Positions 2,133-34,824 of a stretch of 64,000 nucleotides of DNA are shown here, piece by piece (position 1 is the first letter of the stretch; the number at the start of each line of letters is the position of its first letter). The DNA lies in the NCBI GenBank assembly GCA_963737905.1, contig CAVTUQ010000009.1, positions 192,001 to 256,000 of the forward strand. The letters are read 5' to 3'. A program made the translations under genes and the position numbers. The notes below the pieces were generated by a model. The model made no database searches. It was not told the origin of the DNA and was given only the letters and a program-made list of their open reading frames with translations. This DNA is from an uncultured delta proteobacterium (GTDB lineage Bacteria > Desulfobacterota > Binatia > UBA9968).

Positions 2133-3144
2133 CTAGCGCGAATCGGTGATATGGCTTTCTCTGGCTGGTTGTGAAACACCCGTGTTAGGCAATCTGGAGA
2201 CGGTTTCTGCCATGGGGAATAAGTTATTGAGACTCGGACGCGATGAGATATATCCCTGCTGCTCGGCATACTCGACGAATTTCTCAAGCACGTTCGCATT
2301 AGGGCTCAAGCCGTGGTTCCACGGGTTCTCGCCGAATCTTCTCTCCTGTTCTTCGCGCAAAAGCACCGCCGTAGGAAATGAAAATCGTTTCGGGTACTGA
2401 TATCGCTCCATGCATAACCTGTCAGCTTCATCGAACGCGGCGAGAAGCCGTCCGGCGAGCCACGGATGTTTATTCAAAAGCGATTCTTTTAAAACCAGGG
2501 TGTGCGTAATCGGAAAAATCTGCGTTCTATCGAAGTAGCGTTGTACCGAAGTTGGGCAATCCTGGAACAGTCTCCGTATCCGAGGATCGCCGGCCCGGTA
2601 TGCACGCGGCACATTTGCCGCAATCACCGCATCCAGCTCCCCGTCGAGAAGCAGTTGTTCCACATCTTTCTCTTGAACAGTTTTCTTTACGTTCTGAGGC
2701 GCCGCGTATCCGGCACCTTTCGGTCGATGAGGTAACCCAATGAACGTCGGAGGGAGAAACGCCGTGATGTTCTTGGAGGATTCCCCGCGCCCACAAGCCG
2801 ACGGTAAACCGGTATTGCTCCATCCCCACCTTTTTGCCTTTCAAGTCTTGAGGCGCGTCGATTCCGGAATTTGGCGAGCAGAAGATATACGGCTGTATGA
2901 ACATGCGGAGCGGAAAAACCGGTAGGGCCACCAAGGGTTCGCCGCGGCAGCGCGCCATGACATACCAAGACAAGGACATTTCTACGACGTCGAACATTTC
3001 ATACACGGGCCTATAGCACGCTGCTCCCTGGGTTGGCGGAGGAAATACTTTTAGGGAAACGCCGTCAACGCGCGCCTCGCCCGTGGCCAGCGCGTTGGTT
3101 CTGTCATAATCCGCAACCATCAAACTGAGCTCAAGATCACCCAT
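2133..3144 (-). CDS. 4,5-dihydroxyphthalate decarboxylase-like protein (Pht5 family, periplasmic-binding fold), frameshifted
   Basis: N-terminal LSLMVADYDRT...DGV, EMSLSWY, ALPVFPLR; C-terminal GELDAVI and IFPITH. ORFs 2527..3144 and 2133..2663 join via a frameshift near 2700. Confidence 0.75.
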
Positions 3145-3205
3145 GTTGGACCCCTTTCACGTAAGCCTGTCTAACCGTCGATCCAATCTATAGACTGCGC
3201 TCTCG

Positions 3206-4198
3206 CTACCTCTTGAGTTGGTCGCCGGCCAACTTATTGACGAAATCTTCGCGGAAAAACTTATCCATATTTCCGTCTATCTTGAGATTTGCTGCGCGCG
3301 CCAAGGCCTCAATATTTCCTTTGTTCATGGATACTGAGAAGCCGTCAATAACGTAATTCAGCGACTTCTCCAAGGTCTCTGTATTGGCACTCAGGTCTAC
3401 TTTGCTCAGAAACAGGATTGTCTTCCGCGTTTCACTGCGGATAAAGGTTATCGAGTTCCGAATGGCTTTTAAAAAGGCAAAGATTTCCGCTGGCTGGGAT
3501 TTTGCCTTTAGATTTGTCGTAACAATGACAACAAAAGGCAGCTCAGGGATCGCCTTGCCGATTTCAAAAAGCGTCGGGAAACCCTTTGCCTCTAACAAAC
3601 CTCTTTCAGTTGCAGAAAACGGAGCAGCTTGAATTATTCCGTTCTCCAAAGCGTTTACCCGCATAGGGCTATTGCTCGTGAACATCACTCGGTAGTCTCT
3701 ATCACGAACCAAACCCTTCCTTCTCAAGGCTTCGACGGTGGCGAACTCAGTCACCCCTCCGGATCCAGTTACACCGATTACCTTTCCTTTGAGATCGCTG
3801 ACCGTTGATATCCCTTTCGCCGCAATGAGGGCTTGATCCAAATGGGCGGTATGTCCGCCTACAATGACAACATCCGCGCCTCTGTTGATGCTGGTGATTG
3901 CTGTAATTCCCCCCATAATCGCAAAGTCGGCTTCGCCACTCAGCAAGGCGGCTATGATAATAGGTCCTCCCCTTACATAAGTAGGCCGTACGTCAAGCCC
4001 TTCAGCAGTGAACATTCCGAACTGTCGCCCTATGCTTACAGGCAAAGATGAGTTCCACGCGGGTGAAGGATATACGACGGTCAGCGTTTTCGCATGAACA
4101 TAGCCGGGGGTGAGCAAGGGCTGGCAAAGGAAAGCCACCACAACCCCTAAAAAAAGGAATTGTTGCAACGTGCTTAGTGAGATTTGAGACCGAGCCAT
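3206..4198 (-). CDS. ABC solute-binding protein, NMT1/THI5/SsuA-like
   Basis: Signal peptide; F..EGLDV, ALLSGEADF and DLKGKVIGV motifs. Confidence 0.85.
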   Translation of the reverse strand: MARSQISLSTLQQFLFLGVVVAFLCQPLLTPGYVHAKTLTVVYPSPAWNSSLPVSIGRQFGMFTAEGLDVRPTYVRGGPIIIAALLSGEADFAIMGGITAITSINRGADVVIVGGHTAHLDQALIAAKGISTVSDLKGKVIGVTGSGGVTEFATVEALRRKGLVRDRDYRVMFTSNSPMRVNALENGIIQAAPFSATERGLLEAKGFPTLFEIGKAIPELPFVVIVTTNLKAKSQPAEIFAFLKAIRNSITFIRSETRKTILFLSKVDLSANTETLEKSLNYVIDGFSVSMNKGNIEALARAANLKIDGNMDKFFREDFVNKLAGDQLKR

Positions 4199-12176: not shown

Positions 12177-13463
12177 GTGCCAACGAGCGAGGCTGCTTTA
12201 CCGGAGGCTTCGCAGCCGTTTCGGGGTCCCCTCGGCATATTGCTCCGGTTCAGGGCCTTTGAGGCATTGCGCCATCGCGAATACCGTTTGATCTGGTACG
12301 GGCAAATCTTCGCGTCCATGGGAACCTGGATGGACCAGGTCACCCGGGGTTGGCTTATCTATGAGCTGACGGACTCCGCGCTCCAGCTCGGCTTGGTGCG
12401 GGGAGTTCAAGCCATACCTTTTCTCTTGTTATCTCCGGTGGCGGGCAGCGTCGCCGACCGCTATTCGCGCAAGATGCAGGTGGTGCTTACGCAGATCGCC
12501 AACGGGTTATTGTTTGGAGCGACGGCGTTGCTGATTCTTACCGGCCAGATCCGGCCGTGGCATGTCTATGTCACCGCGGTCTTAATGGCGATCGTTCAGG
12601 TCTTTCTGCAGCCGGCACGGGCGGCCCTGATTTCCGACGCCGTACCGGCCAACAACCTGACCAACGCCATCGGTCTCAACGCCGTTATTTTTAACGCCGC
12701 GCGCAGTACCGGCCCCGCCCTCGCAGGCGTGCTCATCGCCAAGTTCGGAACCGGCGAGGCATATTCCGTCCAGGCGATTTTTTTCTTTCTCGCAACGATC
12801 TGGACCACCCAGCTTCGTTCCGCAGAGCGTTCCGGCAGCGGCTCCCGCGGTGCCCACGGCGAGTCGTTCGGCCAAAGCATTATCGAAGGATGGAAATTCA
12901 GCTGGAGGAACGAAGTCGTTCGCACCGCTCTTCTCATCGTGATGTTCGTTTCGTTGCTGATTGTGCCGTTTACCACTCTCCTGCCGGTATTTGCGCGCGA
13001 CATTCTGCAAGTCGGCGCCACGGGGCAGGGGCTGCTGCTCATGGCTATGGGCGTGGGCGCGTTGTGCAGCGCCGTTCTCATCGCTTCCGTCGGCGATCGC
13101 TTGCCCCGGGGTATGCTTATGCTGGGCAGCGTGACGCTTTACGGATTTATTATCGTGATGTTTGCAGCATCACATTGGTTTTGGCTTTCAATGATATTGA
13201 TGGTCATCGTGGGCCTGTGCCACGTGCACTCGCACGCTCTTGTTCAAACCATCATTCAATCCTATTCTCCTTCCGAATTCCGCGGGCGGACCATGGCTAT
13301 CTTCCACATGAGCCAGGTGGTGATGACAGCCGGAGCCATGCTCTTCGGTGCGCTGTCATCGATTCTTGGGGCAGAGTGGGCGGTCGCATCGATGGGGGTC
13401 TTTGGCGCGCTGATCATGATCGGGATCTCCCTGGCCCTGCCGGCCGCCCGGTTTATCCGATAG
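12177..13463 (+). CDS. MFS transporter (MFS_3/EntS-like)
   Basis: About 12 hydrophobic segments; GSVADRYSRK motif A. Confidence 0.9.
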   Translation: MPTSEAALPEASQPFRGPLGILLRFRAFEALRHREYRLIWYGQIFASMGTWMDQVTRGWLIYELTDSALQLGLVRGVQAIPFLLLSPVAGSVADRYSRKMQVVLTQIANGLLFGATALLILTGQIRPWHVYVTAVLMAIVQVFLQPARAALISDAVPANNLTNAIGLNAVIFNAARSTGPALAGVLIAKFGTGEAYSVQAIFFFLATIWTTQLRSAERSGSGSRGAHGESFGQSIIEGWKFSWRNEVVRTALLIVMFVSLLIVPFTTLLPVFARDILQVGATGQGLLLMAMGVGALCSAVLIASVGDRLPRGMLMLGSVTLYGFIIVMFAASHWFWLSMILMVIVGLCHVHSHALVQTIIQSYSPSEFRGRTMAIFHMSQVVMTAGAMLFGALSSILGAEWAVASMGVFGALIMIGISLALPAARFIR

Positions 13464-15035: not shown

Positions 15036-16169
15036 CTAGAAGCCGATGATTCTTAATTGGAGCAAGCCGGAGAGATCGTTGTGGGAGTTGCCGGATGAAA
15101 TGAAATCGGGTTGTTGGTTGTAATTAACATTGAAAGATAGTGTATCGTCTTTTCCCAGAAAGTTCCCGATTTTCCAGTCCAGGGCTGTGGTGGTCCCAAA
15201 CGTCCTCACAATATTCAATCCGTCACCGCCATAGCTTCGGGCGAATGACGTCGTGCCGGTGAGCTTCAACACATCGCGGAAGGGAGTGTAGGCAAAGATG
15301 AGCTCCGTCCTCGGAGTTTCGATTCTAGCTCCAGTATTTGCATTCCGCTCTTCTCTGATGCTGAGATTAGGGTTCACAGAAAGGAAATCGAATGGGCGAT
15401 AAGAACCTGTGAGAGTATTCGTAAAAGCCGTCGTTGCTTGGTTTAGCGCTGCCCCTGCATCTATCCATTCGTAACTCGACGCAAACTTTGCTCCCCATTG
15501 TGACCGATTGATGTTGAGCGACGCAGTGGCGTTCTTGGTCACGCGCAGGCTGTTTACATCCAGGAGTTTCTCCCAGGACTCGCCGATGGATCCACGAAGA
15601 CTGAAGGGGCCTAGATTGTGCTCTCCCCAAAGTTGGCCTTCATCGCGGGTTTGGTCGGTTGCAGCCCCTGCGATGGAGACAAAGCCACGATCTGTGGATT
15701 TGTAGTCGGCGCCGTAGCCTAAACTTCCCCAACGGCTCTTAAGTCCAAGCCGGAGCATTTTTGGCCAATCCTGACAAGCACACTGGCCCGCCAAAGAATT
15801 GAGGGAGCTGTAGGACAGCTCGCCTTCGCCAGTTAAGCCGCTGCCGGCAAAGGAAGAGGTCGCCAGTAGATTTAAGTATTTCCGGGAATTGCCATCCTGC
15901 AAACCGCCGTTCGGCTCGCTGGGCGCATCGCGCTTTTCGAGGTACGAAGCCTTCAGTTCCAGGAGTTTTGGGCCGAAGCTTAGGACAAGCGTTTTTCCGG
16001 CAGGAACAGCGGGTCTGGGCATCCCGTCAATCTGAGAGAAAGCTGTCGGATCAGGTGCCAAGATAGGAGATGACGCCGGCTCAGGGAAAATCTGAGAAAG
16101 CTCAGGCTTTGCAGTGGTGCAAGCAGAAGAAAGGAAAATTAAGGCGGCTAGAAGATAAAATTTGCGCAC
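15036..16169 (-). CDS. Hypothetical lipoprotein with outer-membrane beta-barrel-like C-terminal region
   Basis: Lipobox LSSA-C (Cys17), Pro-rich linker, many alternating amphipathic strands, and C-terminal LQLRIIGF ending in Phe. Confidence 0.65.
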   Translation of the reverse strand: MRKFYLLAALIFLSSACTTAKPELSQIFPEPASSPILAPDPTAFSQIDGMPRPAVPAGKTLVLSFGPKLLELKASYLEKRDAPSEPNGGLQDGNSRKYLNLLATSSFAGSGLTGEGELSYSSLNSLAGQCACQDWPKMLRLGLKSRWGSLGYGADYKSTDRGFVSIAGAATDQTRDEGQLWGEHNLGPFSLRGSIGESWEKLLDVNSLRVTKNATASLNINRSQWGAKFASSYEWIDAGAALNQATTAFTNTLTGSYRPFDFLSVNPNLSIREERNANTGARIETPRTELIFAYTPFRDVLKLTGTTSFARSYGGDGLNIVRTFGTTTALDWKIGNFLGKDDTLSFNVNYNQQPDFISSGNSHNDLSGLLQLRIIGF

Positions 16170-16250
16170 GGTAAAAACCTGTAAGATGATATTTTAGTCC
16201 ATCTTCGATTTTTACTAAAGAGGAGCCAAGCGGGGCGGCCGCAAGTCCGT

Positions 16251-17282
16251 CTAGAGGGAAAGCCTCTCCCAATCCGCGTTGGATGCATCGCGTGCAATCG
16301 AAAGCCCCCCATCGGACCCGGCAAAAATGGGATCCTTGACGACGGTCACTCGACCCCCTCCCAGGTCCGAGCAGGCTTTTTCGAGAGCAGTCGGGAGACC
16401 GGAAATGAGCGAGCTTCCGCCCGCTACAATAATATTGTTGCGCACCTGCTCCTGGTACTCGGGCTCCACCCTGGAGAGAAGATCGATCATGGTCTCCGAG
16501 ATGGGGGCCAGAATAGATTCACAGGCGGCGCGCATTTCATCTGTGATATCGAATTCTGTCGCCTTTCCCTTGGCTGGCACCGTGACCGTCACTCGACCCT
16601 TCGGATCACCGACGAAACTCCATTTTTCTTTCCAGTCACGGATCATATGAACCGAAACCTGGGCCTCAGGATGGTGCTCCTGCATCAGTTTTAAGAGGCG
16701 TTCGTCAATGGAATCACCGGCGTTTGGCAGCGTGCGCTGATCTTCCTCGGTAGGATAGCGGCCTTGCATGACACAAAAATCCGCCGTCCCGGCGCCAATA
16801 TCGATGATCATCGCGTGGAGCAATGCTTCCAAGCCGTAGGCCACCGCGAAAGGTTCAGACACCAACATCACGCTATCGGCAATGCCGTCCATGGCGCTCC
16901 GGAGTCTTTGTCTGCTGACTCGAAACGCCTCGGCCGGAACGCCGACAACCGCGCGTACCTTGCCTCGGTTCTTGCTTTTTTGCTTGAGGCCTATCAAGGA
17001 AATCAAATGGCGCAGTAATTCCTGGACCGCCTCCTCGTCCTTCGCCGATCCTTCTTTGATGACTCCGCGTTCGAGCGGCCGGCGGAGATCCAGCATCGAA
17101 CGATTGTCTAGGGCTTCGCGACCGACGAGGACGGTTTTCTTCACTAGTTTGCGGGCTACCATATCCAGGGGCCAGCCCACATAGCTGTCAACCACGTGAC
17201 GTTCGCCATTTGAAGCGGAGATGGAGCTTCGAGAGGTACCCAGATCTATTCCGATGCAGAGAGTTTCGTTGGTTTCTTCCAT
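16251..17282 (-). CDS. MamK-like actin-fold ATPase
   Basis: Actin motifs IDLGTS, VPA, SEPFAVAYG, DIGAGT, AGGSS. The segments PTEEDQRTLPNAGD, KEKWSFVG, PEYQEQVRNNIIVAGG and VKDPIFAG match MamK as I recall it, rather than MreB. Confidence 0.85.
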   Translation of the reverse strand: MEETNETLCIGIDLGTSRSSISASNGERHVVDSYVGWPLDMVARKLVKKTVLVGREALDNRSMLDLRRPLERGVIKEGSAKDEEAVQELLRHLISLIGLKQKSKNRGKVRAVVGVPAEAFRVSRQRLRSAMDGIADSVMLVSEPFAVAYGLEALLHAMIIDIGAGTADFCVMQGRYPTEEDQRTLPNAGDSIDERLLKLMQEHHPEAQVSVHMIRDWKEKWSFVGDPKGRVTVTVPAKGKATEFDITDEMRAACESILAPISETMIDLLSRVEPEYQEQVRNNIIVAGGSSLISGLPTALEKACSDLGGGRVTVVKDPIFAGSDGGLSIARDASNADWERLSL

Positions 17283-18284
17283 AAATCAGCTACCTTTTTT
17301 TCCGAACCATTGAGGTTCTTCGCATAAGAAACAATGCCTCTCAGCAGCGCCTGCGCGATCTTTTCCCGATAATCGGCGTTTGTCAACAATTTAACGTCAT
17401 CTTCGTTCGACAGACAGGAAACCTCGGCCAAGACGGCGGGCATCTGAGTGCCGACGAGGACCGCGAAGGGGGCCATCTTCACGCCGCGATTTTCCAGTTC
17501 GGGGTTGATTTGGCTGAGTGACTGATAGAGTTCGGTGTTGATGGTCTTGGCAAGCGTATAGGATTCATCGCGCCGGGTGTCGAGGTAGATCTTTTCCAGC
17601 AGCCGCCGATAGTCAGCCAAAGAGTAACCGGAATCCCGGTTTTCAATGCCGGCGAGCTTGATCACGGCCGGATCGTTAGAGGCTCCGACATAGTACGTTT
17701 CCAGTGGCCGGATTTCACGGGGTTCCATCCAGTTTACATGGATCGAAACAAAAAGATCGGCGTTGTTGGCGTTGGCGAAAGCCACTCTTTTTTCCAGCGG
17801 TAAGGTTTCATCGGTGTGTCGCGTCATCAGCACTTCGAAAGGGACATCTTCCATGAGTCCGCGCAATCGGAGTGCGATGTCCAACGTGATGTCCTTCTCC
17901 GACACTCCTGATTCCGAGATAGCGCCATGTTGTTTACCGCCATGTCCCGGGTCGATTACGATTCTCTTGACCGAGAGAGGAAGGACCGACCGGTTTATTC
18001 GGGAAGGGGCCGGAAGAGGCGTCGCCGCTTTGAGCAGATGGCTCCCGGCCGCTATGTCCGTGGCGGCCGGGTTGGATGACGAATTCTTTGCCCCTCGAAA
18101 CCACCAGCGCCGGTACCGCCAGATAAACGATACTTGCGATCAGCAAAAACCCCCACAGCCAGACAGGAAATATGGCTTTGGGCTGCTCCTGGGGTTTGGT
18201 TGCGCTAACAACCCGCGTCCCTCCAACATTGCTCTGGATTGCCTCACGAAGGATGCGAAGTTTAGTCTGTTCTACGCTTTCCAT
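17246..18284 (-). CDS. Membrane-anchored N-acetylmuramoyl-L-alanine amidase (Amidase_3), frameshifted
   Basis: ATG 18284 leads to a cytoplasmic segment and one TM helix (WLWGFLLIASIVYLAVPALVV). After a frameshift near 18095 come a linker and RIVIDPGHGG, SEKDITL, FVSIHVN and LAEVSCLSN (Zn ligands and catalytic Glu). Confidence 0.88.
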
Positions 18285-19099
18285 TAGTATTGCCTTATCT
18301 CTTAGTTCGGCAAGATACCGCACGATCAAAAGAGCCAACTGGTTGCTATGTCTATCTTGCCGTAGGGCACGGAATACTCCGGATTTGTGAGACTCTTATG
18401 AGCAAAGGCAGGCGGCCGCTACGATTATCGAAGTTCCTATCTCTCGCAATTCTCTTTGTACCCTGACAACTAGGGCGGTTGTACGGCTGTTAGTTACCAG
18501 TGGATTGGGGCCGACGAACGGGTTGTAATAAATCGATGTTTGAGTCGGCACATACGGGCCTCCTCTACTCAAAATTGATCTGTAAGTCTAATCGAAAGTG
18601 GCGATTTACGCAATGAAAACTACCGATGGAACTGATGGAGCAGGCTCGATCTCTCGGTCTGATCACAGGAAAATCGTGTATAATAAAGACCCTCGTTTTG
18701 GTGTTAGATATACAGAGTTGTCTTTCTCTTCTCATCGTAGGAATCATCTACTGGCATTTGAGGCAACAAATTTCAGTTGCTCCGAGGGCGGCACTCCTCG
18801 CGGTCGTTTTTCCTTGAGCTTGATTCCTTATCTCGCGATTGTTCGTCAGCAAGGGATTCCCAATTTTCAATCTAATGGAGCTCAAGCCTGAGTGGACACG
18901 AGTTTATGAGGATCCTATGAGGAGCTCTTTGTTCGACGAGGTTCGCCGTTGGAAGAGGAGATCCGGCTTACAAAGCACCGGAGGTGTCGTACATGGGTGC
19001 AGGGTCATGCTTTCCGTGACCTGTCGGCGGGTCTCTTGGCCAGGTCCTTCCTTCCGTTCCAAATTTCGCCTATAAGTTGGGTTGAGAAAGGAGATTTCT

Positions 19100-19918
19100 A
19101 TGGCTACACAGCGCATCAGTTACGTTGACCCGGCGACGATTACCGATCCGGCAATGCTCGAAGAGCTCGATCGATGTCGCCGCGAGGGGACACCGCGCCC
19201 GGAAAGTTCCGCAATCCGTGCCCACGTGCCCGCTTGTTTTTGGTCGTTCGCGAATTCTTGGCGTGATATTTTCAAGAACGGCATTTGCGATCATAGCATC
19301 AAAGAACTCTGCCGCGTTTATGTTTCAAGATCGATCAACTGCGAGTACTGCGGCAACCAACGTTCGCTCAAAGCGGCCAAGGCGGGCCTCGAAGAGGCGC
19401 AGTACGACGACCTGTTGAACTTTGAGCAATCGAAGCGCTTTGACGAACGGCAAAAAGCCGCGCTGGCATACGCCGAAGCCATTACCTGGCATCTGGATAC
19501 CGATGACGCGTTCTGGCAGCGACTATATCAACATTTTTCCGAGCCGGAGCTGGTTGAGATCGGCTGTTTTGTCGCATTGACCATGGGCCAGCAGAGCTGG
19601 CTGCGCCTGCTAAACATCGAGCACCATCAAGTGCTGGCAGGGACCTCGGGAGGAATGGCGCCGGGATTCGAAACTTTCGAGGCTCTGGACAAATCGAAGG
19701 CATCCGCCGATTACTGGGCGAAAAAGGCATCCCTCGTTAACTGCGAAGAGTTAGAACGCCGAATTAAACGCATGGATATATCTCTCGTTGAGGTCTTTCA
19801 GAACCAAGAGTTGACCTCAGTATGCTCTTACACTAAAGTAAAGTCCGGCCTTTTTCTCCGTCCATGTCGATCCACGTCGCGCTGCACCACGTCACCCAAT
19901 ACTATTACGATCGCCTGA
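19100..19918 (+). CDS. Carboxymuconolactone decarboxylase/AhpD-like protein
   Basis: IKELCRVYVSRSINCEYC and ERQKAALAYAEAIT; RBS AAAGGAG. The real stop is probably near 19740 (frameshift in an A-run), because the raw tail overlaps the next gene. Confidence 0.8.
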   Translation: MATQRISYVDPATITDPAMLEELDRCRREGTPRPESSAIRAHVPACFWSFANSWRDIFKNGICDHSIKELCRVYVSRSINCEYCGNQRSLKAAKAGLEEAQYDDLLNFEQSKRFDERQKAALAYAEAITWHLDTDDAFWQRLYQHFSEPELVEIGCFVALTMGQQSWLRLLNIEHHQVLAGTSGGMAPGFETFEALDKSKASADYWAKKASLVNCEELERRIKRMDISLVEVFQNQELTSVCSYTKVKSGLFLRPCRSTSRCTTSPNTITIA

Positions 19919-22900
19919 TTAACCTCGGCCCCCAGGTGGTCCGTCTGCGACCCGCGCCGCATTGTCGCACGCGGATTTTGAGCTATTCACTGCGGGTTGA
20001 GCCGGCCAAACACTTTATCAACTGGCAACAAGATCCCCAGGCGAATTATCTCGCTCGCCTGGTATTTCCCGAATCCACCCGCAAATTTCACGTCGAAGTC
20101 GATCTCGTCGCCGAGATGGCGGTCATCAACCCGTTCGATTTTTTCTTGGAACCCCACGCCGAGTATTATCCCTTCGAGTACGAGCCTTGGCAGCGGGTGG
20201 AGCTCGCGCCGTACTTCAGGCAGGAGCCGTTGACGCCGCTCTTCGATTGTTACTTGGCCGCGGTTTCGCGTGAGAAGATGCGCAGCGTCCCGTTTCTAGT
20301 CGAGCTCAACCGCCAGCTCGCCGGCGACATCGAATACCTGATCCGCATGGAGCCCGGCGTGCAGACGCCGGAAGAGACACTCACCAAACGGTCGGGCTCT
20401 TGCCGCGACTCGGGCTGGCTGCTCGTCCAACTGCTGCGCCGTCTTGGGCTCGCTGCGCGATTTGTCTCAGGCTATCTGATCCAACTCACCGCTGACGTCA
20501 AATCCCTTGACGGCCCGTCGGGGCCGGAAAAGGATTTCACTGATTTGCACGCCTGGGCCGAGGTGTATCTGCCGGGAGCCGGCTGGATCGGTCTTGACCC
20601 GACCTCCGGGTTATTCGCGGGCGAAGGTCATCTCCCGCTCTCCTGCACGCCTGAGCCGGCATCCGCCGCTCCGGTGACCGGCGCCATCGACGAGTGCGAG
20701 GTGGAGTTCTCTCACGAAATGACGGTCACGCGCATCTGGGAAGCGCCGCGGGTCACCAAGCCCTACACCGAAGAAGAGTGGCGGGCCATTGAGGAGCTGG
20801 GTCACGATGTCGATGCCGACCTTGCGGCTCGCGACGTGCGCCTGACCATGGGCGGGGAGCCGACGTTTGTTTCCATCGACGACCCCGACGGCGAAGAATG
20901 GAACACCGCGGCGCTGGGAACTGGCAAGCGCAGACTCGGTGCTGATCTCTATCAGCGTTTGCGCAAGCGCTACGGTGCGCAGGGCCTCGTCCATTTTGGC
21001 CAAGGCAAGTGGTATCCGGGCGAGCAACTGCCACGCTGGTCGCTCAACTGCTTTTGGCGTGCCGATGGCGAACCCATCTGGCGCGCCGAATCGCTGATCG
21101 CGGACGAGTCCCGGCCGGGCGACGCGACGGAAGCTACTGCGGCGGAGTTTCTGCGCGGCGTCGCCGAAAGGTTGGGACTCGACGCGCAGCACATATTCCC
21201 GGCCTATGAGGATGCTTATTATTTTCTATGGCGCGAGCGGCGATTGCCGGCCAACGTCGATCCTTTCGATTCCCGGCTCGACGATCCACTCGAACGCGAG
21301 CGCTTGGTGCGCGTATTCTCTCAAGGTCTCAAGCAGGTCGTCGGCTATGCCCTCCCGGTAACGCGGGACCCGGCGAGCGGACGCTGGCGCAGCGGATCTT
21401 GGTTTCTACGTAGCGAGCACTGTTATTTGGTCCCCGGCGACTCGCCTATGGGTTATCGTTTGCCGCTCGACTCTCTGCCGTGGGCTAAAGCCAGCGACTA
21501 TCCATACGTCTACCCGCCGGACCCCACGGTGCCGCTTCCGCCCCTTGTGAGCCATGCCGAATTCCGATTTCAGGTCGCCGCAAGGCGGTCCGCCGATCAG
21601 GCAACTTCAAGCGAGAGCCGTGCCGAGAGCGCCGGCTCGAAGCGGGACGGCTCCTTCGACCTGGCGCCGAGCCTCTTCGAGAGCGCGTCGTGGATCAACC
21701 GTTCGGCCATATGCGCGGAGCCAAGAAACGGAATTCTCTATGTTTTTATGCCGCCGATGGAATCGCTGGAGGATTACCTGGGACTCGTCGCCGCGATGGA
21801 AGCCACGGCGGAGGAGATGCGCCAACCCATTCTCTTTGAAGGCTACGAACCGCCGCGCGACCCGCGGCTAATTAATTTCCGGATCACTCCGGACCCCGGC
21901 GTGATCGAAGTGAACATTCATCCGTCGCGGCGCTGGGACGAGTTGGTGGAGCATACGACTTTCCTGTACGAGGCCGCGCGGGAGTCGCGGTTGGCAACCG
22001 AGAAATTTATGATCGACGGCCGCCACACCGGCACCGGTGGCGGCAATCACTTTGCGCTCGGCGGCGCGACGCCCAACGACTCGCCCTGGCTGCGCCGTCC
22101 GGATCTCTTGCGGAGCCTGGTGAGCTACTGGCACAACCACCCTTCGCTCTCGTATATGTTTTCCGGGCTATTCATCGGCCCCACTTCGCAAGCCCCGCGT
22201 ATCGACGAGGCACGCAACGACTCGGTGAACGAAATCGAAGTCGCGTTCCGCGAGATGAAGCGCCAGACGCAGTCGGACACTGACCCCTGTCCACCTTGGC
22301 TCCTCGATCGACTGATGCGCCATCTGCTTATCGACGTCACCGGTAATACGCACCGTTCCGAGTTTTGCGTCGATAAGCTTTATTCGCCGGACAGTGCCAC
22401 CGGCCGCCTCGGGCTCCTTGAAATGCGTGCTTTCGAGATGCCGCCCCACGCGCGCATGAGCCTGACCCAGCAACTGCTGCTGCGCACTCTCGTCGCGCGT
22501 TTCTGGCGAGCGCCTTATGCGCCGGCGCGGCTGGCGCGCTGGGGCACCGAACTGCACGATCGCTTCCTACTGCCGCACTTTGTCTGGCTTGACTTCAATG
22601 ACGTGATCACTGAATTGAACGAGGCCGGCTACCGGTTCGAGGCGCGGTGGTTTACGCCACACTTCGAGTTTCGTTTTCCGAAATACGGCGACCTCTCGAC
22701 TCGCGGCATCGATCTCGAGTTGCGCGGCGCCCTGGAGCCCTGGCACGTGCTGGGCGAGGAAGGCGCCGTCGGCGGCACGGCGCGTTATGTCGACTCGTCC
22801 CTCGAGCGGCTACAACTTAAGGTGACCGGGCTGCCGCCGGATCGCTACACGATCACTTGCAATAGGGTACCGCTACCCTTACAGACTACGGGAAGCGTGG

Positions 22901-23214
22901 GGGAGTTTGTGGCGGGAGTGCGCTACCGCGCGTGGCAGCCGTCATCCGCTCTTCACCCGACCATCGCTGTGCACGCGCCGCTCACGTTTGACATTGTGGA
23001 CCGTTGGATGCACCGGAGCCTCGGCGGCTGCCAGTATCACGTTATGCACCCCGGTGGGCGCAGCTATGCGACGTTTCCGGTGAACGCCTTCGAGGCCGAA
23101 AGCCGCCGCTTGGCGCGCTTCTTCCGCATCGGCCACACGCCGGGGCAGATGGAGGTCGGCGAGCCCCGCATCGATCCCGAGTTTCCGTTTACCCTCGATC
23201 TGCGCAAGATCTAG
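19864..23214 (+). CDS. Transglutaminase-like domain fused to DUF2126 (putative amidoligase)
   Basis: Triad motifs GSCRDSGW, DLHAWAEVY, LDPTSG; then MGGEPTF, TPDPGVIEVN, GTGGGNH, GPTSQAPR.DE and GNTHRSEFC. Confidence 0.92.
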   Translation: MSIHVALHHVTQYYYDRLINLGPQVVRLRPAPHCRTRILSYSLRVEPAKHFINWQQDPQANYLARLVFPESTRKFHVEVDLVAEMAVINPFDFFLEPHAEYYPFEYEPWQRVELAPYFRQEPLTPLFDCYLAAVSREKMRSVPFLVELNRQLAGDIEYLIRMEPGVQTPEETLTKRSGSCRDSGWLLVQLLRRLGLAARFVSGYLIQLTADVKSLDGPSGPEKDFTDLHAWAEVYLPGAGWIGLDPTSGLFAGEGHLPLSCTPEPASAAPVTGAIDECEVEFSHEMTVTRIWEAPRVTKPYTEEEWRAIEELGHDVDADLAARDVRLTMGGEPTFVSIDDPDGEEWNTAALGTGKRRLGADLYQRLRKRYGAQGLVHFGQGKWYPGEQLPRWSLNCFWRADGEPIWRAESLIADESRPGDATEATAAEFLRGVAERLGLDAQHIFPAYEDAYYFLWRERRLPANVDPFDSRLDDPLERERLVRVFSQGLKQVVGYALPVTRDPASGRWRSGSWFLRSEHCYLVPGDSPMGYRLPLDSLPWAKASDYPYVYPPDPTVPLPPLVSHAEFRFQVAARRSADQATSSESRAESAGSKRDGSFDLAPSLFESASWINRSAICAEPRNGILYVFMPPMESLEDYLGLVAAMEATAEEMRQPILFEGYEPPRDPRLINFRITPDPGVIEVNIHPSRRWDELVEHTTFLYEAARESRLATEKFMIDGRHTGTGGGNHFALGGATPNDSPWLRRPDLLRSLVSYWHNHPSLSYMFSGLFIGPTSQAPRIDEARNDSVNEIEVAFREMKRQTQSDTDPCPPWLLDRLMRHLLIDVTGNTHRSEFCVDKLYSPDSATGRLGLLEMRAFEMPPHARMSLTQQLLLRTLVARFWRAPYAPARLARWGTELHDRFLLPHFVWLDFNDVITELNEAGYRFEARWFTPHFEFRFPKYGDLSTRGIDLELRGALEPWHVLGEEGAVGGTARYVDSSLERLQLKVTGLPPDRYTITCNRVPLPLQTTGSVGEFVAGVRYRAWQPSSALHPTIAVHAPLTFDIVDRWMHRSLGGCQYHVMHPGGRSYATFPVNAFEAESRRLARFFRIGHTPGQMEVGEPRIDPEFPFTLDLRKI

Positions 23215-25825: not shown

Positions 25826-26728
25826 GCGCGAGCAGTGTGCGTTGTTACCGGGTCGATGCATCGGACCACCTATCGGTATTCAGAGCCGGTGACCCTTTCT
25901 CATCAGCAGCTCCACCTGACCCCGCGCCTGCTCGCTTACCAGCGCACCCGTGTGCACGAGGTGGCCATCACGCCGCCGCCGACCTATCGCCGGGAGCGCA
26001 CAGACGCTTTCGGCAATCCGGTGACCGACATGGCCATTGAGGCGCCCCATACCACGCTTGAGATTGTTGGCCGTTCGGTCATCGAAGTTGGCGGACGAGA
26101 ACCTCCCGAGGCCGATAAAACAGTGGCCTGGGAAACCGTCCGCGAAGCGCTTGCTTATCGCGCCGGCTGGCGCCCGGACCCTGAGGCGCTCGAAGCCACA
26201 CGGTTTCTCTTCGAATCGCCCCATGCGCGCGTAAAAAGGGACCTACGAGCCTACGCGAGCGATTGCTTCAGGCCTGGACGTTCGGTGCTGGAGGCGGCCC
26301 AGGGGCTCATGGACAAAATCCATGGTGAGTTCAAGTTTGATCCTGAGGCAACGACCACCACAACCCCGGTCATGACGTTCTTCGAGCAAAAGCGCGGCGT
26401 GTGTCAGGACTTCACCCACTTTATGATTTCTTGCTTGCGTTCCACCGGGCTCCCCGCTCGTTACCTGAGCGGCTATCTCGTGCCGCGATCAACGTCGGGT
26501 AAACAACGGCCGGTGGGGGCGGAGGCCTCCCATGCGTGGGTGGCCGTGTTCGTTCCCGGCAGCGGCTGGGTCGAGCTCGATCCGACCAATAACGTGCTGC
26601 CGTCCTTGGGGCATATTACGTTGGGATGGGGCCGCGATTTCTCCGATGTGACGCCGTTACGCGGTGTCATCAATGGCGGCGGAGAGCAGAGGCTTACGGT
26701 AAAAGTGACCATCGAGTTGGATGAGTAA
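25822..26728 (+). CDS. Transglutaminase-like protein
   Basis: GVCQDFTH, ARYLSGYL, SHAWVAV, LDPTN, GRDFSDVTP. ATG 25822 overlaps the previous stop (ATGA); frameshift near 25855. Confidence 0.9.
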
Positions 26729-34260: not shown

Positions 34261-34824
34261 CTGAGTTCACCAACACCAACCGACAGAGAAGCACCTGAAA
34301 CGCCGAGTGTCGAGGACGCAATTTCCAGGCAAACCTGGCGCTCTCTCCACGCTTTGCGTCGACTGCGGATCTTGGATGCGCTCGGCCATCGCGAGTTCCG
34401 CTTGTTATGGTACGGCCAGATATTCTCGTCCATGGCAACATGGATGGACCACGTTGCCCGTGGGTGGCTTATCTATGAGCTGACGGACTCAGCGTTCCAG
34501 TTGGGATTGGTGCGAGGAATTCAGGCCATCCCGATTCTCTTGCTGTCCCCGCTGGCGGGGAGCACCGCCGACCGCTATTCGCGCAAGATGCAAGTCGTGG
34601 TAGCTCAAGTGGTGGACGGATTGTTGTACGCTGTGATCGCACTGCTGATAGTTACAGGCGAGATCCAGCCGTGGCACGTCTATGTGACCGCCTTTGGCAT
34701 GTCCATCGTCTGGACTTTTCAGCAACCCTCCCGGGCCGCCATGGTCGGGGATGCAGTGCCATTGAATCAACTGACCAACGCCGTCCATCGACTCACCCCG
34801 ACTATCAGAGGGAAGTGGAGTTAA
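34261..34824 (+). pseudogene. 3'-truncated MFS transporter, paralog of 12177..13463
   Basis: Near-identical N-half (YGQIF.SM.TWMD.V.RGWLIYELTDSA.QLGLVRG.QAIP...ADRYSRKMQVV). Homology breaks at LTNA. Possible CTG start at 34261 after GGAGG. Confidence 0.75.

Follow-up and report, generated by a model that had tools for sequence, protein, structure and literature searches.

The DNA considered here, called the window throughout, is a stretch of 64,000 nucleotides (positions 192,001 to 256,000 of contig CAVTUQ010000009.1, assembly GCA_963737905.1) from an uncultured delta proteobacterium of the Binatia. Between 15036 and 18284 its minus strand carries three co-oriented reading frames, which encode a peptidoglycan amidase with an Amidase_3 domain, an actin-like ATPase and a candidate outer-membrane barrel lipoprotein. 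An earlier note, made from the letters of the window alone, had read all three genes as one system linking a cytoskeletal filament to the envelope. Our analyses favour a different core: a conserved module of two genes, a bitopic amidase and an actin, that probably serves to position one of them through the other. The features of the locus are as follows, in window positions.

18085 to 18284, minus strand: N-terminal part of the amidase (cytoplasmic tail and transmembrane helix), in the assembly in another frame than the catalytic domain; one frame in the relatives L029 and L030 (comparison of open reading frames).
18225 to 18275, minus strand: conserved cytoplasmic helix motif of the amidase tail, residues 4–20, VEQTKLRILREAIQSNV; predicted actin-docking peptide (25 tails and a complex model).
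18099 to 18170, minus strand: single transmembrane helix of the amidase, approximately residues 39–62 (hydrophobic stretch; helix 41–56 in the model of an orthologue).
18084 to 18085, minus strand: one-base insertion splitting the amidase frame (DNA alignment with L029 and L030; contigs of public runs X1 and X4).
17246 to 18079, minus strand: Amidase_3 catalytic frame (linker and domain) of a putative bitopic amidase of the AmiA/B/C type with regulatory insert (Pfam, structure alignments).
16251 to 17282, minus strand: MamK-family actin-like ATPase, 343 amino acids (aa), of a distinct amidase-linked clade (NCBIfam and structure scores, tree).
16170 to 16250, minus strand: spacer of 81 bp between actin and barrel genes, with a weak terminator-like hairpin at 16240–16224 (stem of five pairs, consensus match only).
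16169 to 15036, minus strand: barrel-lipoprotein candidate, 377 aa (translated reading frame).

All three frames lie on the minus strand, the Amidase_3 frame ends at 17246 and so overlaps the actin start by 37 nt, and 81 bp separate the actin from the lipoprotein gene. The co-orientation and the 81 bp are as the earlier note had described them.

The actin carries the complete set of ATPase motifs that the earlier note had read in it, namely phosphate-1 DLGTS, connect-1 SEPF, phosphate-2 DIGAGT and adenosine GGSS. The residues D13-G15-T16, E143-P144, D161-G163-G165-T166 and G288-G289 are invariant in 25 orthologues and align to MamK. The NCBIfam model of MamK (NF040964) gives 373.8 bits, below its curated cut-off of 400, a value that members of the same clade straddle (392.7 bits for P0241 and 425.2 for P0245); the BeeR model (NF053558) gives 216.7 bits against a cut-off of 530, and two MreB models give 73.5 against 293 and 62.2 against 366 bits. 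Among structures in the Protein Data Bank, the best match is MamK 5ljw (250 bits, residues 6–341), followed by BeeR 8r2n at 146 bits, with MreB at approximately 53.

Phylogenetic analysis indicates that the amidase-linked actins form a lineage of their own. A HMMER scan of 1.84 billion representative proteins yielded 184 proteins at E ≤ 1e-30. The quick IQ-TREE tree comprises 84 rows: the window protein, 16 loci of known context, 48 full-length representatives, 18 long fusion proteins, represented by their C-terminal domains, and, as outgroup, the MreB of the same genome; ten partial representatives of 320–470 aa, all proteins shorter than 320 aa and P0263 (522 aa, partial query match) were left out. 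All amidase-linked actins fall into one clade of 19 rows (SH-aLRT 99) with an inner clade of 16 rows (100). A separate 14-row clade (98) holds P0267, whose scores are 508 bits on the MamK model and 463 against the solved MamK 5jyg, and another clade (99) holds the BeeR-like P0357, with 506 bits on the BeeR model and 403 bits against 8r2n. The clades are labelled only through such NCBIfam scores and structure matches. Since the deep branches are poorly supported and the single outgroup has a long branch, we leave the order of the clades unsettled. As judged from scores and tree, the actin belongs to the MamK family, in a clade apart from the solved MamK and BeeR proteins, and is not an MreB; it does not group with MreB in the tree, in keeping with the MamK-like identity first proposed for it.

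The possibility that the protein is an ordinary MreB paralogue lying beside an amidase by chance draws on a match to Pfam MreB_Mbl, albeit at only 85 bits, and on public annotations that name its relatives 'rod shape-determining protein MreB'. We consider it scarcely credible: tree and family scores already refute it, the NCBIfam MreB scores of 62–74 bits lying far below cut-offs of 293–366; the genome holds a canonical mreB (MreB_Mbl, 501 bits) with mreC and mreD on another contig (C37); and both the conservation of the gene order across several phyla, by record title, and the extra amidase that tracks the actin (see below) are foreign to a chance neighbour.

A true magnetosome MamK, whose cluster would lie elsewhere in the genome or which would reflect cryptic magnetotaxis, fits the fact that MamK is the best family match both by model and by structure. 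Against this stand the score below the cut-off and the separation from the clade of P0267, together with the genomic setting. The earlier note had seen neither a magnetosome nor an mreCD context at the locus, and a Pfam scan of the flanks agrees: besides the amidase and the barrel, the flanking genes in the window encode an amino-acid permease, a major facilitator superfamily (MFS) transporter, a CMD protein and a DUF2126 protein, none of them a magnetosome protein. The note had also proposed a search for magnetosome genes in the rest of the genome, and no signature gene reaches its cut-off there. MamI and the magnetochrome domain have no match, MamP has PDZ-type matches only (at most 35 bits against a cut-off of 300) and MamQ has one LemA-type match (80 bits against 250); because the genome is 87% complete and the searches had no magnetotactic genome as positive control, these genes are to be taken as not found rather than as absent. 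We regard magnetosome function as very improbable, if slightly less so than an MreB paralogue.

An identity with Mad28 was also considered. In Mad28, Ser replaces Asp in phosphate-2, xExx replaces xEPx and identity to MamK is 15–17%, according to PMC10653835. The D161 and E143-P144 of the window actin and its 250-bit alignment to MamK rule this identity out. The tree contains, in addition, a 14-row clade (SH-aLRT 99; P0257–P0287) of proteins of 523–1232 aa with a MamK-like actin domain at the C-terminal end; in the two that were scanned, P0261 and P0257, the 550–870 N-terminal residues have no Pfam match.

The partner gene encodes a recognizable wall amidase. Its catalytic part matches Pfam Amidase_3 at 169.2 bits (210 residues over 172 profile positions), and the N-terminal piece has no Pfam match. 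The motifs DxGHGG, EK and SxHxN and the catalytic E align to AmiA and are invariant in 24 orthologues; the individual residues that align to AmiA are the H of DPGHGG, the E of EK, the H of SIHVN and the E of AEVS, and they include the zinc-binding residues. The best alignments, which are continuous and include an insert (query residues 131–175), are to AmiA 8c2o, AmiB 3ne8 and AmiC 4bin; those to CwlV, CwlD and LytH extend only to about residue 134, without the insert. An EN pair within the insert is invariant in the 24 orthologues. The NCBIfam equivalog models remain below cut-off (AmiA 114.7 of 400, AmiC 104.6 of 700 and AmiB 81.4 of 532 bits), and a Pfam scan finds no AMIN domain in the protein.

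At its N-terminus the amidase has approximately 38 cytoplasmic residues followed by one hydrophobic stretch. The model of an intact orthologue from the same genus places a helix at 2–23, the transmembrane helix at 41–56, a disordered linker at 60–110 and the domain at 111–333 (predicted local distance difference test, pLDDT, mostly >90), with insert helices at 209–219 and 226–233. The linker, of about 50 residues, is rich in Pro, Ala and Ser and disordered, and a basic stretch lies between the tail helix and the transmembrane helix. The amidase of L030 (genome G001) differs by an insertion of about 35 residues at approximately 60–95, inside the transmembrane region, which may reflect faulty assembly or a genuine variant whose topology differs.

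In the window itself the amidase is split. The tail and transmembrane part occupies one frame, which opens at ATG 18284 with MESVEQTKLRILREAIQSNV, continues into the hydrophobic stretch FPVWLWGFLLIASIVYLAVPALVV and reaches a stop near 17934. The Amidase_3 domain lies in a separate frame, open from 18079, in which the first possible start codon, GTG 17905, comes after the DPGHGG motif. The earlier note had described an amidase with a short cytoplasmic N-terminus, one transmembrane helix and a complete Amidase_3 site; all of these parts are present, but they do not form one open frame, and the single gene of that description merged two frames without saying so. The break is one extra base in AAAGAATTC at 18084/18085, as seen in a DNA alignment with both same-genus relatives (L029 and L030), in both of which the amidase is uninterrupted, with 345 and 384 aa when translated from the first start codon. 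We further aligned Logan contigs of four public runs to the window. The only covering contig of run X1 omits base 18084 (depth 2.8 of 2.8; two other differences in 155 letters), and so does the only covering contig of run X4 (8.34 of 8.34). The contigs of run X5 cover neither 17850–18077 nor the site at 18084, and the cover of run X18 is confined to the actin. Because the same-genus relatives and the X1 and X4 contigs lack the extra base, we read the break as a probable assembly indel: the base at 18084 is probably an assembly error, and the intact form exists in near-identical DNA.

Alternatively, the module could be dead in this genome, the amidase being a true pseudogene and the actin a leftover, as the frameshift and the lack of a start codon before DPGHGG in the catalytic frame would suggest. 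We consider this unlikely, though not negligibly so. The actin and both amidase parts are otherwise stop-free and highly conserved, the actin is 92–93% identical to the same-genus copies, and the single covering contigs of X1 and X4 carry no extra base. Furthermore, single-base indels are a common error of long-read assemblies, and few long contigs are typical of such assemblies; with 46 contigs for 6.7 Mb, this genome would fit one. Other length differences occur nearby. At 16054–16057, where the barrel gene encodes its N-terminal linker, three extra bases relative to the window are present in X4 and X5 and one in X1, and at 18314–18343, upstream of the amidase start, the window and the public contigs differ in length again. 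Strain variation or more assembly indels may underlie both.

Conservation of the gene pair supports a module. We compared 40 relatives, comprising 24 genomes of the same family (including G006 and G012, which are flagged unpublished) and 16 genomes of two sister families; the genome of the window is added in the count of 15 actin-bearing family genomes. The actin is found in 14 of the 24 family genomes and in none of the 16 sister-family genomes. An Amidase_3 gene lies directly upstream of it at 14 of 15 loci from family genomes and at 38 of 41 loci in GTDB species genomes, two sets that have at least eight contigs in common. By record title, some of which may be mis-binned, the 41 loci come from Binatia, Methylomirabilota/Rokubacteria, Acidobacteriota (Thermoanaerobaculia and others), Rhodothermales, Eisenbacteria and one Udaeobacter. 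Of the three loci without it, L056 is a second copy of the actin, L065 lies at a contig edge and L069 encodes a Rhodopirellula protein of another clade, with 38% identity. Among the 36 loci with a recovered upstream frame, the amidase stop lies 1–7 nt before the actin match in 28, overlaps it in five and is 12–88 nt away in three. Across family genomes the actin is 75–93% identical and, at the same loci, the amidase domain 54–87%; the barrel is 31–66% identical where it was found whole.

The amidase that accompanies the actin is an additional copy. Two or more Amidase_3 copies are present in every one of the 15 actin-bearing family genomes, counting that of the window, and none or one in each of the ten family genomes without the actin; the 16 sister-family genomes apparently have one each, represented in G040 by two fragments. 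We give this co-occurrence as counts and apply no test, as related genomes are not independent.

Two further observations concern the surroundings of the actin in relatives. In genome G004 (contig C807, locus L024/L056), the actin at 2343–3371 appears to be a second, recently duplicated amidase-linked actin; it has no amidase upstream and is followed by a repetitive protein of 1374 aa, rich in Glu, Leu and Lys, that looks coiled-coil. In Binatia outside the genus, different genes follow the actin in different genomes. In five of these genomes (G004, G008, G013, G014 and G023), a gene downstream of the actin, adjacent to it or up to about 2 kb away, encodes a secreted protein of roughly 230 aa with an SH3-like domain (L019, 7309–7977; L021, 3372–4157; L022, 7203–7910; L025, 7734–8489 in actin-forward orientation; L034, 9097–9768). 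It scores 25.4 bits on SH3_3, just below the cut-off of 27, may be a lineage-specific wall-binding accessory and was not found in the window.

The cytoplasmic tail of the amidase carries a motif of the form TKxRLLRxAVQxNxD. A pattern search recovers it in 31 of 36 amidases, and inspection shows it in the remaining five; in 25 aligned tails from several phyla R13 and N19 are invariant and K8 is kept in at least 90%. We folded the actin (25-row alignment) together with the 42-residue tail (25 rows) in three runs, alongside three controls. The interface score ipSAE was 0.75, 0.76 and 0.75, against 0.02 for the best of the three controls; the partner pLDDT was at least 58, and at least 92% of contacts were common to the runs. 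The ipSAE mark is reached by 58 of 80 solved complexes and by 2 of 110 mismatched pairs, counts that hold only roughly here because we used our own alignments. The contacts on the tail (residues 4, 7–12, 14–16 and 18–20) fall on the conserved motif, and those on the actin (138–141, 145, 149, 152, 154–155, 174–176, 329, 332–333, 337 and 340–341) outline the groove between subdomains IA and IIA. The amidase tail is thus predicted by the model to bind the IA/IIA groove of the actin, an interface that the earlier note had proposed to look for by this kind of modelling. Synteny (38 of 41 loci), the strict co-occurrence with an extra amidase and the predicted tail–actin interface together support a functional tie between the actin and the membrane-anchored amidase, and the link that the note had drawn between these two genes gains substance from them.

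The third gene, by comparison, adjoins this pair only within the genus. Its product has a signal helix ending in LSSAC and the C-terminus LRIIGF, in line with the lipobox and terminal-Phe beta signal that the earlier note had recognized; among 42 homologues the Cys is at least 90% conserved and the terminal GF is invariant. It has no Pfam or NCBIfam match. An AlphaFold2 model is all-beta over residues 57–373, with 17 long strands and a mean pLDDT of 71.8, and Foldseek returns only outer-membrane barrels for it, at low TMq values of 0.29–0.45. On this modelling, the 377-residue protein is a credible candidate for an outer-membrane barrel lipoprotein. The family is small, with 131 matches at E ≤ 0.001, and no Pfam domain occurs in any of them.

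We sought the barrel beside the actin by tblastn in the 15 and the 41 loci, by phmmer against downstream reading frames and by a search of 41 genomes. It adjoins the actin only within the genus (G000, G001 and G002) and at none of 39 out-of-genus loci. In eight actin-bearing family genomes (G004, G012, G014, G017, G021, G022, G023 and G024) it lies on a contig other than that of the actin; three genomes (G016, G018 and G019) have the barrel with no actin found; and in four actin-bearing genomes (G006, G008, G013 and G015) these searches did not find it. Nor does the barrel have constant neighbours of its own: across nine loci and the window, none is common to three or more, except an MFS transporter in three. 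The barrel is therefore rejected as a conserved partner of the module.

These data bear on the reading of the earlier note, in which actin, amidase and barrel cooperate as one device across all envelope layers. In its favour, all three genes point the same way and the actin and barrel genes are only 81 bp apart; the order recurs in G002 and in G001, where only the first 108 barrel residues precede the contig end; the barrel is a credible outer-membrane protein; and it co-occurs with the actin in 10 of 14 other actin-bearing family genomes. The distribution just described already weakens this reading, each of barrel and actin having been found in genomes where the other was not, and since the adjacency is confined to the genus, a system spanning the whole envelope is not supported. 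In addition, an RNA-library contig of a near relative diverges from the window right after the actin stop. The weak hairpin in the spacer would also fit a separate third gene; as a consensus match only, it is no evidence of function, and the scan behind it yielded weak consensus matches only, with three promoter-like sites where 2.7 were expected and 11 terminator-like sites where 4.7 were. We consider three-part cooperation improbable. The three-gene order is kept within the genus and is lost beyond it, where only the order of amidase and actin is widely kept; the barrel gene should not be counted in the module.

For the two-gene module, our preferred reading, we propose the following scheme. 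The first gene would encode a bitopic wall amidase, in which a cytoplasmic helix of about 20 residues, a basic stretch, one transmembrane helix and a linker of about 50 residues lead to a periplasmic Amidase_3 domain. The second, placed within a few bases of it or overlapping it, encodes a MamK-family actin-like ATPase of its own clade, which may polymerise in the cytoplasm. The amidase tail, as the model predicts, would dock in the hydrophobic groove between actin subdomains IA and IIA, so that a filament could hold and position the extra amidase in the membrane or, conversely, the amidase could tether the filament to the membrane. Peptidoglycan would then be cleaved at sites set from the cell interior. 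Because it retains the insert by which AmiA, AmiB and AmiC block their active sites, the amidase probably still depends on a periplasmic activator. Standing on top of MreBCD and a housekeeping amidase, the module is an accessory one.

Several points weigh against this scheme. By their titles, all 41 loci belong to metagenome-assembled genomes; one paralogue, L056, lacks an upstream amidase; and the only sign of expression is a pair of RNA-library contigs from a near relative that cover the actin. This strain could truly carry the frameshift, given that X1 may be the source sample, with a depth of 2.8, and that X5 does not cover the site. The predicted contact has a partner pLDDT of only about 59, its score is a measure of model confidence, and amphipathic helices are easily placed in an actin groove; no control was such a helix. 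A complex of ParM with the ParR peptide, which binds in the same groove, has been solved, so part of the pass may reflect likeness to it. The groove is, moreover, largely common with core MamK (F145, Y149, L154 and G174): all four interface positions with at least 90% conservation among the amidase-linked actins have an identical residue in core MamK, which leaves the interface not clearly clade-specific, and the positions A333, D337, Y176 and L155 look clade-specific in a suggestive way only. Finally, the groove also takes part in longitudinal contacts of an actin-like filament, according to the main text of PMC11929497, so the tail might bind only monomers or filament ends.

The solved MamK proteins of Magnetospirillum (5ljw, 5jyg and 5ljv) are of the same family and length as the window actin and have the same nucleotide motifs, with E143 and D161 in the same numbering; the window actin differs in scoring below the family cut-off, in its well-supported separate clade and in the magnetosome genes not found at its locus or in its genome. 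Its partner would be an amidase, whereas that of MamK is the adaptor MamJ (PMC10653835). BeeR (8r2n, from Verrucomicrobiota) is a MamK-related actin from non-magnetotactic bacteria, whose hallmark, as set out in the main text of PMC11929497, is a disordered N-terminal extension of 30–50 residues. The window actin starts 12 residues before DLGTS without such an extension, and differs from BeeR also in its low scores (216.7 bits on the model and 146 against 8r2n) and its clade. Nowhere does that main text use the terms amidase, operon or gene cluster.

The architecture proposed for the amidase has parallels in the elongation and division machineries. The window actin finds the MreB–RodZ entry 2wus among its structure matches. 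In MreB–RodZ and FtsA–FtsN, a bitopic partner binds an actin-like filament through its cytoplasmic N-terminus and has a periplasmic part related to peptidoglycan. The principle of a tail, one transmembrane helix, a periplasmic wall-related domain and an actin-family partner is thus the same; in the window, the periplasmic domain would itself be a hydrolase, the actin is of the MamK family, and docking is predicted at the IA/IIA groove, in contrast to the RodZ site on MreB and the 1C domain of FtsA. AmiA, AmiB and AmiC of Escherichia coli have the same catalytic domain, including the insert, which forms a self-blocking regulatory helix in those enzymes. They are soluble periplasmic proteins, and the window amidase instead has a transmembrane anchor and a conserved cytoplasmic tail and no AMIN domain.

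LytE and CwlO of Bacillus subtilis are endopeptidases that are not known to be fused to an actin-binding tail or encoded beside an actin. The likeness to the window lies in an actin-like protein governing where a wall hydrolase acts, since the actin isoforms MreBH and Mbl control LytE and CwlO, respectively, according to PMC3817527. LytH of Staphylococcus (7tj4) is an Amidase_3 protein, with 55.8 bits against the window amidase; it has no AmiA/B/C insert, and its alignment covers only query residues 36–130. LytH is membrane-anchored, and its partner ActH is a polytopic membrane protein and not an actin.

In the open literature, with subscription journals and supplements outside the scope, we found no paper describing a pair of MamK-family actin and amidase. 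MamK-type actins are known for lining up magnetosomes, and BeeR showed that relatives exist in non-magnetic bacteria, for which we found no function given in its description. The amidase-linked family offers a clear genetic partner and a testable contact, a tail of about 20 residues of which two are invariant. Should this contact prove real, it would physically connect a cytoplasmic filament directly with a wall hydrolase, and would bear on how bacteria confine dangerous autolysins in space. Relatives of the actin are common in public soil and sediment metagenomes, with 6140 matches at E ≤ 0.001, the best 120 of these 6140 being 81–90% identical.

A broader view, which we advance tentatively and hold somewhat less likely than the positioning module itself, is that the pair represents a third wall machine built on an actin, in addition to the MreB elongasome and the FtsA divisome. 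Its filament would grip the amidase tail and so set, from within the cell, where peptidoglycan is split, and the module would spread horizontally between soil phyla and gain envelope-binding accessories, such as the SH3-like protein in some Binatia and perhaps the barrel in this genus.

Other readings of the locus found no footing: for a defence system, the sole PADLOC match is that of the actin, at 19.6 bits, neither amidase nor barrel having any, and for a plasmid origin, tblastn gives no match at E ≤ 1e-20 among 72,556 plasmid records. Divergently upstream of the module, 19864–23214 encodes a protein of 1116 aa with a transglutaminase-like domain and DUF2126, and a second, weak transglutaminase-type match lies at 26387–26674. 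The G+C content at 20–26 kb is 0.62, above that of the rest of the window (approximately 0.53–0.58). Farther along, 34303–34824 on the plus strand holds a fragment that matches only residues 2–165 of the MFS transporter at 12177–13463, with 66% identity and no continuation in any frame, and is probably a truncated paralogue.

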